The translations under genes and the position numbers were made by a program. DNA of 64,000 nucleotides from Shigella phage ShigP1. The notes below the pieces were generated by a model. It worked only from the letters and a program-made list of their open reading frames with translations, had not been told where the DNA came from and ran no database searches. The stretch is from sequence record PQ818763, one strand, 5' to 3'. The number at the start of each line of letters is the position of its first letter. The first letter of the stretch is position 1. Below are positions 51,455 to 52,768 of this stretch, piece after piece.

Positions 51455-52768
51455 TTAGTTATTTGTTTCCATGTCAAAAGAGATTCCACGACCCGCTTCA
51501 TCGGCAAACCGAACTGTACGGGTTTGAGGTTCTAATACTTCAGGGTTGTTAGCAATAAAGCGATCAGCGAGACTATCTCCCAAATCTTGTTCCATACCTT
51601 CATCAGTCCAGATAACACGAGAAGGGGCGTTGATATCACCAACAGCGAAACCCTGACCAGAGAACTGACGTGCGCTAACAGTTAAGCCGTTTGGTCGACC
51701 ACGAGAGGGTCTAGCCATCCATCGCTCCATAGAATCACTTGTAATACCAAGAGCTTCTTCAAAAGCTGTTCTACGAGTAGGGCTTTCTCTTCGTGACTCT
51801 TGTGCTCGACGCATTGCAGGGGCTACAAACACCCCTTCAATTGCATTGTGTCGGTTAGGTTCCTCTTCTCGACCAAGCAGATCACCACCCGTGTTAGTCG
51901 TTAAATTTGTCAACCCCTCAGACCAATACGCATGAATCTGACCAGAACCGTGAAGACTAGACATAATCTGAATCTCTTCATAAGGGATTCCAAAGAATCG
52001 ACTCATGTCTTGGTTAACACAATATAGAGCACTTGTTGTATCTTCAATAAGAGAAACCTGACCTAATCCATTGACTAGATGACTAACTGGCTGAGGTGTG
52101 GGAAGATATCGAGTTTGGGCCATGTATTGATGCGCAACTGCTGGAGAGGAAAATCTCAACACTTGTGAGTTAGGCCACTTCTTGTGAACATACCTGATTT
52201 CACGACTAGAGACAACCACTGGACAAGGGGAAGTCATAGCCAAATATCCGTGAGAAGTCATGAATAAGTTGTCAAGAGTCATCGCACCACGGCACATCAT
52301 AGGAAAATTATCCAATACCTCTTCAATAGAAGTAGGATAATTAAACATGAATTGGATACGAACCCCATTCCACTGAAACTCAATAATATCAGTGAATGTT
52401 AATTGAGAACCCCCAGCATAGGATTCGTTTGTAGCTTCAGCAAGAAGTGATGCATATTCAATATCTTGTGACTCTAGCCATTCCTTCACATTACTTTCAA
52501 TCTCCCGTCCAAGCTCTTGCCAACGATCAGTTGGGATGAAAGTGTTTTGAGTTCTTGGTGTTTGTCCTCTGACAATAAAGATATCAATGTCATGTGGAGC
52601 TATGTTATTAAGGACAGCATCACGAACAGCCCCACCAGTAATGATGGGACAGATACCATCTGGAATCAAGTTGTTGTTAATCAATTGTTCAATGAAGTGA
52701 CGACCAACAGTGATATCAGGTTGTTGAGCAACCTTATCTTCAATTTGGTTAATCGGGATAACAATCAT
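51455..52768 (-). CDS. Pol-beta-superfamily nucleotidyltransferase (CCA-adding / poly(A)-polymerase-like head)
   Basis: ITGGAVRDAVLNNIAPHDIDIF fits GG-x13-DxD with the GGxVRD form typical of CCA enzymes; start moved to the internal ATG. Confidence 0.5.
   Translation of the reverse strand: MIVIPINQIEDKVAQQPDITVGRHFIEQLINNNLIPDGICPIITGGAVRDAVLNNIAPHDIDIFIVRGQTPRTQNTFIPTDRWQELGREIESNVKEWLESQDIEYASLLAEATNESYAGGSQLTFTDIIEFQWNGVRIQFMFNYPTSIEEVLDNFPMMCRGAMTLDNLFMTSHGYLAMTSPCPVVVSSREIRYVHKKWPNSQVLRFSSPAVAHQYMAQTRYLPTPQPVSHLVNGLGQVSLIEDTTSALYCVNQDMSRFFGIPYEEIQIMSSLHGSGQIHAYWSEGLTNLTTNTGGDLLGREEEPNRHNAIEGVFVAPAMRRAQESRRESPTRRTAFEEALGITSDSMERWMARPSRGRPNGLTVSARQFSGQGFAVGDINAPSRVIWTDEGMEQDLGDSLADRFIANNPEVLEPQTRTVRFADEAGRGISFDMETNN

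Follow-up and report, generated by a model that had tools for sequence, protein, structure and literature searches.

A stripped-down CCA/poly(A)-type nucleotidyltransferase in the replication module of Shigella phage ShigP1, possibly a template-independent 3'-end enzyme

Background

What is a nucleotidyltransferase of the CCA-adding and poly(A) polymerase type doing in the replication module of a podophage? The question is raised by a gene at 51455..52768 on the minus strand of a 64,000-nucleotide stretch of DNA from Shigella phage ShigP1 (sequence record PQ818763), called the window here. We refer to the product of this gene as the NTase. All coordinates are those of the window and all features described in it lie on the minus strand.

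The window is a Kuravirus genome (Gordonclarkvirinae; a phiEco32-like C3 podophage). Kuraviruses are common, broad-host-range coliphages that figure in therapy work (ES17, SU10), and their strong resistance to restriction is unexplained; the NTase is one of two candidates that have been named for the restriction resistance of the Gordonclarkvirinae. Its annotation and the idea that it belongs to the CCA/poly(A) type were already published before this analysis. New here are its precise anatomy, the features of CCA-adding enzymes and poly(A) polymerases that it fails to display, the glutamine at the site of the third catalytic carboxylate, its relationship to small phage NTases, which form a very large group, that group's association with genes for DNA polymerase A (PolA) and ligase, and an exceptional evolutionary rate.

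The NTase is expressed and is a non-canonical enzyme of the class II type that is probably active. Our preferred reading, to which we assign a probability of about 0.35, is that it acts as a template-independent 3'-end nucleotidyltransferase accessory to DNA replication and not as a CCA-adding enzyme. It would bind a nucleoside or deoxynucleoside triphosphate (NTP or dNTP) with Mg2+ and transfer the nucleotide, without a template, onto the 3'-OH of a nucleic acid. The acceptor would most likely be a DNA or primer 3' end arising from phage DNA replication or repair, which would give the enzyme a terminal-transferase-like accessory role, with its disordered tail serving as a tether or a partner-binding region.

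Results

The gene is a genuine open reading frame (ORF) of 437 codons plus stop, with its ATG at 52768 and its stop codon at 51457-51455. A longer, GTG-initiated version reaching 52825 runs into the upstream gene, and the annotated start in phage ES17 (gp073) is the ATG at 52768. Over its 1314 nucleotides the gene is 99.8 % identical at the DNA level to its counterparts in the Escherichia phages ES17, myPSH1131, FS2B and SkaterBoy_Bas90, and 69 phage records contain at least 80 % of it. The phrog_12715 profile matches the entire protein (residues 1-437, profile positions 1-457, E value 1.3e-244). The orthologues include ES17 gp073, annotated as 'nucleotidyltransferase', and SU10 CDS74; the SU10 protein has been detected by mass spectrometry (PMC4281155).

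A first-pass annotation made from the sequence alone had assigned the protein to the Pol-beta superfamily with a CCA/poly(A)-type head, an assignment that is weak by sequence alone and was confirmed by the predicted structure. The full-length AlphaFold model is confident for residues 1-220, while nearly all of residues 221-437 have a predicted local distance difference test score (pLDDT) below 50. A second model of residues 1-222, built with 27 diverse homologues, has a pLDDT of 90.7 and a predicted template modelling score (pTM) of 0.87. In these models residues 1-220 (52109..52768) form a folded catalytic domain that comprises a class-II-type head and a short neck stub. The alpha-beta-alpha-beta-alpha-beta core of the Pol-beta-like superfamily is present and the nearest structural neighbours are class II heads, with scores of 10.1 for the Bacillus stearothermophilus (Bst) CCA-adding enzyme, 9.9 for the Aquifex A-adding enzyme, 9.8 for the Thermotoga maritima CCA-adding enzyme and 9.7 for the human one. 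Foldseek against the PDB returned the same class II neighbours, the nearest structures being poly(A) polymerase I (PAP I) and CCA-adding enzymes. The agreement between these two comparisons indicates that the head assignment is correct. In a comparison of the model with the Bst CCA sequence, the order of secondary structure elements appeared to match class II one for one through motif B and the first neck helix.

Sequence comparisons gave much fainter signals. The Pfam PolyA_pol model (PF01743) scored 18.8 bits (E value 0.0022), below its gathering score of 23, and a profile of the family matched PDB sequences at an E value of 0.012 over motif A only (GGAVRD...DxD), in the CCA-adding enzymes of 7OTR and 4X4W. 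A direct search of the PDB with the protein sequence gave a chance match only (VP7, E value 0.66), and no NCBIfam or PADLOC model matched. Global hhalign comparison of the family profile with single heads of Escherichia coli Cca or PcnB yielded probabilities of at most 2 %, which are unreliable, and the precomputed Pfam label PF26128.2 carried by many homologues gave no match on a second scan against a Pfam copy that lacks this entry. Defence-type NTases of the CBASS, MNT and MenT/AbiEii kinds were considered and rejected, having neither a family-model match nor the best structural match.

To look at the active site, we aligned 28 diverse members of the family, which outside Kuravirus are 22-34 % identical to the window protein. 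Thirteen residues are invariant (G45, G46, R49, D50, D60, D62, F64, Y117, I128, Q139, P156, Y193 and K197) and position 190 is acidic (D/E) in every member. The GGAVRD and DIDI elements on which the original assignment had been based are indeed in place at residues 45-50 and 60-63. The motif A loop GGAVRD (52619..52636) retains G45, G46, R49 and D50 throughout, as does the catalytic DxD, D60-I61-D62 (52583..52591), both of its aspartates. The class II motif A pattern GGxVRD-x(8-10)-DxD is thus present, and so is the general Pol-beta pattern hG[GS] followed by [DE]h[DE]h, with G45-G46 and D60-I-D62-I found in all 28 members.

The catalytic carboxylates that a transferase of this type should have are therefore only partly there: the DxD is intact and its two aspartates never vary, while the third carboxylate is replaced by Gln139 (52352..52354) in 28 of 28 members. 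The corresponding h[DE]h pattern is not found. The authors of a study of Gp22 from Klebsiella phage fHe-Kpn01 placed that pattern at 'EIDVLF' (PMC7291057), and Gln139 aligns with the Asp of this strand; the 16 residues that separate Q139 from F155 equal the D-to-F spacing in Gp22. The equivalent residue is Asp in seven enzymes from Autographiviridae and Asn in the one from phage muut; most proteins of the phrog_1614 type have Gln, as does the one from Vibrio phage 1.253.O. E130, which in the model appears to face Q139 across a beta-hairpin (strands 125-133 and 136-146), is not conserved; the position is occupied by Glu in 15 members, Asp in four, Ser in five, Gln in three and Asn in one, and is thus acidic in 19 of the 28.

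One explanation for such an active site is that the protein is a catalytically dead scaffold, in which the NTase fold is a nucleotide-binding or structural module joined to other proteins by the disordered tail. The universal Gln at the third position, the variable E130 and the strong sequence divergence between genera are what would be expected of it. Against it, G45, G46, R49, D50, D60 and D62 stay invariant at 22-30 % overall identity, and the N-terminal domain is under purifying selection within the genus, with a ratio of non-synonymous to synonymous divergence (dN/dS) of about 0.10. Pseudo-NTases such as MiD49/51, NF45/90 and Utp22 typically lose the DxD as well. We consider a dead scaffold very improbable. 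That the nucleotide-binding loop and the DxD are strictly conserved, that the N-terminal domain is under purifying selection and that expression has been detected all argue for an active enzyme.

If the enzyme is active, is it a CCA-adding enzyme or a poly(A) polymerase? In class II enzymes three catalytic carboxylates bind metal and the body and tail domains bind tRNA (PMC3925840). The RRD is their ribose-recognition element, and the basic-x-acidic (BxA) triplet together with a flexible loop serves primer positioning and A-addition (PMC2910056). EDxxR is the amino-acid template for CTP and ATP (PMC2532741), and a signature that marks poly(A) polymerases has been defined (PMC2910056, PMC13514080). 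In the NTase the counterpart of motif B 'RRDFTIN' is FPMMC at residues 155-159 (52292..52306), where both Arg and the Asp are replaced and P156 is invariant; the segment reads LDNFPMMC, as against FD(F/C)xxC/N in small phage relatives and RRDFTIN in PcnB, an equivalence for which hhalign of the small NTases with PcnB gives a probability of 90 %. The sequence contains no RRD anywhere, and hence no DxxRRD, nor does it contain [DE]DxxR at any position. Where class II enzymes have their EDxxR-bearing neck helix there is a helix R189-E190-x-x-Y193-x-x-K196-K197 (52178..52204), reading R-E-I-R-Y-V-H-K-K with D/E190, Y193 and K197 retained throughout; the register of this match is inferred. Residues 140-154 (FMFNYPTSIEEVLDN), between the third-carboxylate site and motif B, hold no BxA triplet with its flexible loop, and a regular-expression search after motif A found no poly(A) polymerase signature [LIV][LIV]G[RK][RK]Fx[LIV]h[HLQ][LIV].

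The tRNA-binding helical body and tail domains are likewise absent, as the first-pass annotation had suspected: residues 221-437 have pLDDT below 50, match nothing in Pfam or the PDB and cannot be aligned between genera. Its estimate that some 350 residues lay outside the recognizable head was too high, since the folded domain with head and neck stub reaches to about residue 220 and only the last ~215 residues are unexplained. Because the ribose-reading and base-templating residues and all tRNA-measuring domains are lost, the protein is probably neither a true CCA-adding enzyme nor a PAP I. Homology still argues for template-independent transfer to the 3'-OH of a polynucleotide. Mutants that add dCdCdA were reportedly described by Cho et al. 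in 2007. Given the ribose-recognition role of the RRD element (PMC2910056), loss of the motif B arginines might relax sugar choice.

We next turn to the relatives of the family. Weaker profile matches are phage proteins of about 170-240 residues that belong to phrog_1614, phrog_4400 and phrog_10174, and structure matches in BFVD are the same kind of small phage protein. An hhalign comparison of the family with these small NTases gives a probability of 99.4 % (E value 1.2e-21) over 158 columns that span the whole catalytic domain, and the phrog_1614 profile matches the window NTase at an E value of 1.5e-7. Small NTases of this kind are present in hundreds of phage records.

The position of the small NTase genes was read by hand in 16 contexts, which is not a systematic count. 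The gene adjoins PolA, or is at most two small ORFs away from it, in nine genera (Drulisvirus, Pokrovskaiavirus, Unyawovirus, Ahphunavirus, Maculvirus, Waewaevirus, Vectrevirus, Justusliebigvirus and Phapecoctavirus), upstream of PolA in four and downstream in five. A DNA ligase gene adjoins or lies near it in phi80-18, CF7, ICP1, VnaP and DLP_6, and in a Zobellviridae phage it adjoins a 5'-3' exonuclease gene. In Vibrio phage TCU_VP01_ZB (locus L017, 2839-5039) it comes just after the DNA polymerase gene. Because this adjacency to PolA or ligase recurs in three unrelated phage groups and in different orientations, we favour a DNA or primer 3' end as the acceptor; the loss of the ribose-recognition arginines points the same way.

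The window NTase is itself placed in a replication module, just as had been proposed from its sequence. The gene for the 3'-5' exonuclease subunit of PolA (52770..53327) ends with its stop codon 1 nt ahead of the NTase ATG, for which reason translation of the two is likely coupled. On the other side the dCTP deaminase gene (50912..51445) begins 9 nt past the NTase stop. Further upstream lies a T7 gp4-like primase-helicase gene (53321..55111), and the PolA polymerase subunit (42626..44470) is 8.3 kb away from its exonuclease subunit. The family-A DNA polymerase is accordingly split into subunits of 185 (exonuclease) and 614 (polymerase) residues with about 20 genes between the halves, those for the NTase, the dCTP deaminase and ThyX among them. 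Such splitting of exonuclease and polymerase in T7-like PolA has been described in cyanophages (PMC10201439).

The adjacency finds no explanation if the acceptor is RNA, which is the main alternative. The NTase could repair the 3' ends of host or phage tRNA, in a counter-defence directed at acceptor-end nucleases or the trimming of CCA, or it could tail host RNAs like a poly(A) polymerase, thereby speeding decay and host shutoff. We hold this tentative reading to be nearly as likely as the DNA or primer-end reading. PAP I and CCA-adding enzymes come nearest in structure, and phage CCA-adding enzymes are generally taken to be tRNA repair enzymes (PMC7824862). Expressing Gp22 of fHe-Kpn01, a small relative whose gene directly follows that of the DNA polymerase, is toxic to E. 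coli (PMC7291057), which is expected of promiscuous RNA tailing; this toxicity is the sole experimental datum on the small phage NTases. The NTase tail has Arg-rich patches (residues 318-360) similar to the basic C-terminus of PAP I, and rapid evolution would suit an arms-race role. On the other hand, with RRD, EDxxR, BxA, the poly(A) polymerase signature and the body and tail domains all missing, no known means of selecting C or A or of measuring tRNA is left.

The distribution of tRNA genes does not favour an RNA acceptor either. There is no tRNA gene in the 64,000-nt window, and none was seen in the contexts read from the Autographiviridae that carry small NTases, which are phages of ~40-45 kb. 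These phages are not known to carry tRNA genes. The single tRNA of ES17, a tRNA-Arg(TCT), is encoded outside the window in the early region (locus L034, 7500-7576, minus strand), and its 3' CCA is encoded in the genome. We considered CCA maturation of the phage's own tRNA as the function and rejected it for this reason.

How fast does the gene evolve? A word-indexed homologue search with the full protein returned close kuravirus proteins only, and alignment of the N-terminal domain reached further. Its profile, run against 1.84 billion representative proteins, found about 27 clusters (at 50 % identity) with E values below 1e-20, of 274-482 residues apart from a few fragments; IMG/VR holds six loci of the family. 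In every context read the gene order is primase-helicase, PolA exonuclease subunit, NTase, sometimes an HNH gene, and dCTP deaminase, even where the NTase is only 28-29 % identical. Between the window and phage KBNP1711 the amino-acid identity is 94.6 % for the primase-helicase, 96.0 % for the dCTP deaminase and 83.8 % for the PolA exonuclease subunit, compared to 40.5 % for the NTase's N-terminal domain and 25 % for its tail; dN is 0.62 for the N-terminal domain and 0.02-0.11 for the neighbours. No other gene of this otherwise highly conserved replication module diverges nearly as much as the NTase (window 51455-55111 compared with loci L026-L028). Against a phiEco32-like locus of the same genus (L026), the dS of the N-terminal domain is 0.52 and that of the neighbours 0.07-0.19, a 3-7x difference which hints at allele exchange on top of rapid protein change. 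This fast evolution, together with the variable tail, is less in keeping with a core part of the replisome than with an accessory gene, which possibly faces host defence.

The C-terminal tail (residues 221-437; 51458..52108) is predicted to be disordered. Across the family the stretch past residue 215 measures 59-267 residues; it is rich in insertions and deletions and defies alignment between genera save for a few positions, such as W282 and L286, which are kept across three Gordonclarkvirinae genera. Within Kuravirus the mean identity is 80 % for the tail and 91.5 % for the N-terminal domain, and the tail dN/dS is 0.26-0.41. Its best-kept block, residues 281-320 (51809..51928), is 90-97 % identical in Kuravirus. 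An aromatic residue (F/W/Y) is found among the last three residues in 11 of 25 family representatives (~22 % expected, p ~0.01). T7 gp2.5 and gp4 dock on their polymerase via C-terminal aromatic residues on acidic tails. By analogy, the aromatic C-termini may be a lead toward docking on the polymerase; they are not a result. The Kuravirus C-terminus is acidic with Phe at -7 (...GISFDMETNN; window 51458-51508), and some kuraviruses end alternatively in ...VGGELDQLLNSQNIR.

Discussion

Several observations weigh against a DNA-directed accessory enzyme. All close structural relatives act on the 3' ends of RNA and not of DNA. Because the third carboxylate is a Gln, nucleotidyltransferase activity itself is not certain. 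The adjacency to replication genes may reflect only a shared expression module, and the Autographiviridae cases next to PolA are not fully independent of each other; moreover, large phages have their small NTase gene elsewhere, that of Serratia phage BF lying near an RNA ligase and that of Bacillus phage YungSlug with no replication gene nearby. In comparisons between genera, the NTase has a dN 6-30x as high as its neighbours, an unusual rate for part of a replisome. Nor is the tail an obvious nucleic-acid binder: with no Lys, 20 Arg and 30 acidic residues, the stretch 216-437 has a net charge of -10. Finally, our literature search turned up neither biochemical nor genetic work on the protein or any member of its family.

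It is conceivable that the NTase modifies DNA. The BASEL paper (2025) raised the possibility that a covalent DNA modification originates from the conserved dCTP deaminase and nucleotidyltransferase (PMC11990801); the two together would install or prepare a covalent mark that protects the Gordonclarkvirinae from restriction-modification (RM) systems. These phages are 'remarkably resistant' to the RM systems tested and have no known modification or inhibitor (PMC11990801). The window contains 12 EcoRI, 27 EcoRV and 9 EcoKI sites, so site avoidance does not explain the resistance. A lost ribose discrimination would permit dNTP chemistry, and the small NTase of TCU_VP01_ZB is encoded between a 'nucleotide modification-associated domain' protein and an iron-sulfur (Fe-S) oxidoreductase, a neighbourhood that may be a DNA-modification context for the small enzymes.

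Several facts make this explanation quite unlikely. Base modification is not known for any class II NTase, and in an AT-richer phage dCTP deaminase with ThyX makes up a common pathway for supplying dTTP; these two are the only such genes near the NTase, and a hydroxymethylase, kinase or glycosyltransferase was not seen in the module. GATC occurs 120 times in the window where 302 are expected (2.5-fold depleted) and CCWGG twice where 97 are expected (~50-fold), and BamHI, PstI and KpnI sites are absent from window positions 1-64000. Such avoidance suggests, weakly, that the DNA is exposed to sequence-specific enzymes and is not globally shielded. We know of no modified DNA in most of the Autographiviridae that carry small NTases.

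A bolder version of the DNA-directed idea would account for the broad restriction resistance of the Gordonclarkvirinae: a replisome-tethered terminal transferase, or a DNA-end or base-modifying enzyme, might cause it via 3' tails or a covalent mark, and the small relatives encoded beside PolA in many T7-like and phi92-like phages would act likewise. We regard it as unlikely. If it were true, it would reveal a new and widespread DNA-directed branch of the CCA/poly(A) polymerases with a DxD...Gln active site.

Alternatively, the acceptor may not be a nucleic acid at all. The enzyme might AMPylate or otherwise NMPylate a small molecule or a host or phage protein, or might synthesize or use up a signalling nucleotide, in the service of anti-defence or takeover. 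The altered active site (Gln139, Tyr193, Lys197), the rapid evolution with its hypervariable tail, and the toxicity of Gp22 are all compatible with this. CD-NTases, MNT and ANT are clearly more distant in structure than the polynucleotide 3'-end enzymes; in addition, the lack of any PADLOC or NCBIfam match and of a conserved neighbouring partner gene such as HEPN leaves this an improbable explanation.

Other genes around the module deserve mention. Just downstream of the dCTP deaminase gene, three tandem paralogous ORFs of 65-69 codons (50296-50911, minus strand) are 22-27 % identical in pairs and share a C-terminal M-K-x-W...TR..AR..K...Y. An early cluster (55331-63501, minus strand) encodes a GGACT-like gamma-glutamyl cyclotransferase, a glutamine amidotransferase, an Amidoligase_2 protein and a phiEco32-type COOH-NH2 ligase. 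The same GGACT/amidoligase cluster precedes the replication genes in all distant relatives, and it could bear on DNA or protein modification.

The group to which the NTase belongs consists of very widespread, stripped-down CCA/poly(A)-type enzymes encoded beside polymerase or ligase genes in many podophages and phi92-like myophages. Knowing what is added to what would assign a role to a gene that hundreds of phage genomes carry. Activity would show whether the class II scaffold works with Gln at the third position and without RRD and EDxxR, and might yield a compact template-independent polymerase of practical use. If the protein simply tails or repairs RNA, the finding would be an ordinary one.

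Comparison with known systems

The class II tRNA nucleotidyltransferases (CCA-, CC- and A-adding; PDB 1MIV, 3H37, 4WBY and 1OU5) differ from the window NTase in having the third carboxylate (here Gln139), BxA, the flexible loop, DxxRRD and EDxxR, and where they have body and tail domains the NTase has a disordered tail of ~215 residues instead. E. coli PAP I (PcnB, PDB 3AQL) shares 14 % sequence identity with the NTase, which lacks its signature, RRD, EDxxR and helical body.

The small phage NTases (phrog_1614, phrog_4400 and phrog_10174, including Gp22) are much closer, sharing GGAVRD, DxDIF, hQhh, F(D/P)xxC and RxxxYxxK with the window protein. The Gordonclarkvirinae family is nevertheless a separate, tight clade with FP instead of FD in motif B; its gene always follows that of the split-PolA exonuclease subunit, and its disordered tail is absent from the small enzymes. 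The small enzymes of the Autographiviridae retain Asp at the third-carboxylate site, whereas the Gordonclarkvirinae family has Gln.

RlaP (PF10127) offers a parallel in concept, as it comprises RNA-ligase-associated phage Pol-beta NTases, stand-alone proteins whose role was predicted from gene neighbourhood. RlaP is predicted to restore 3' nucleotides before ligation (PMC7824862). It is a different NTase family, tied to RNA ligases, and the window NTase has no Pfam match to it. The family X polymerases and terminal deoxynucleotidyl transferase, including the minimal ASFV Pol X, have the Pol-beta fold and small size in common with the phage enzymes, and a possible template-independent extension of DNA 3' ends beside a ligase would be a functional analogy only.

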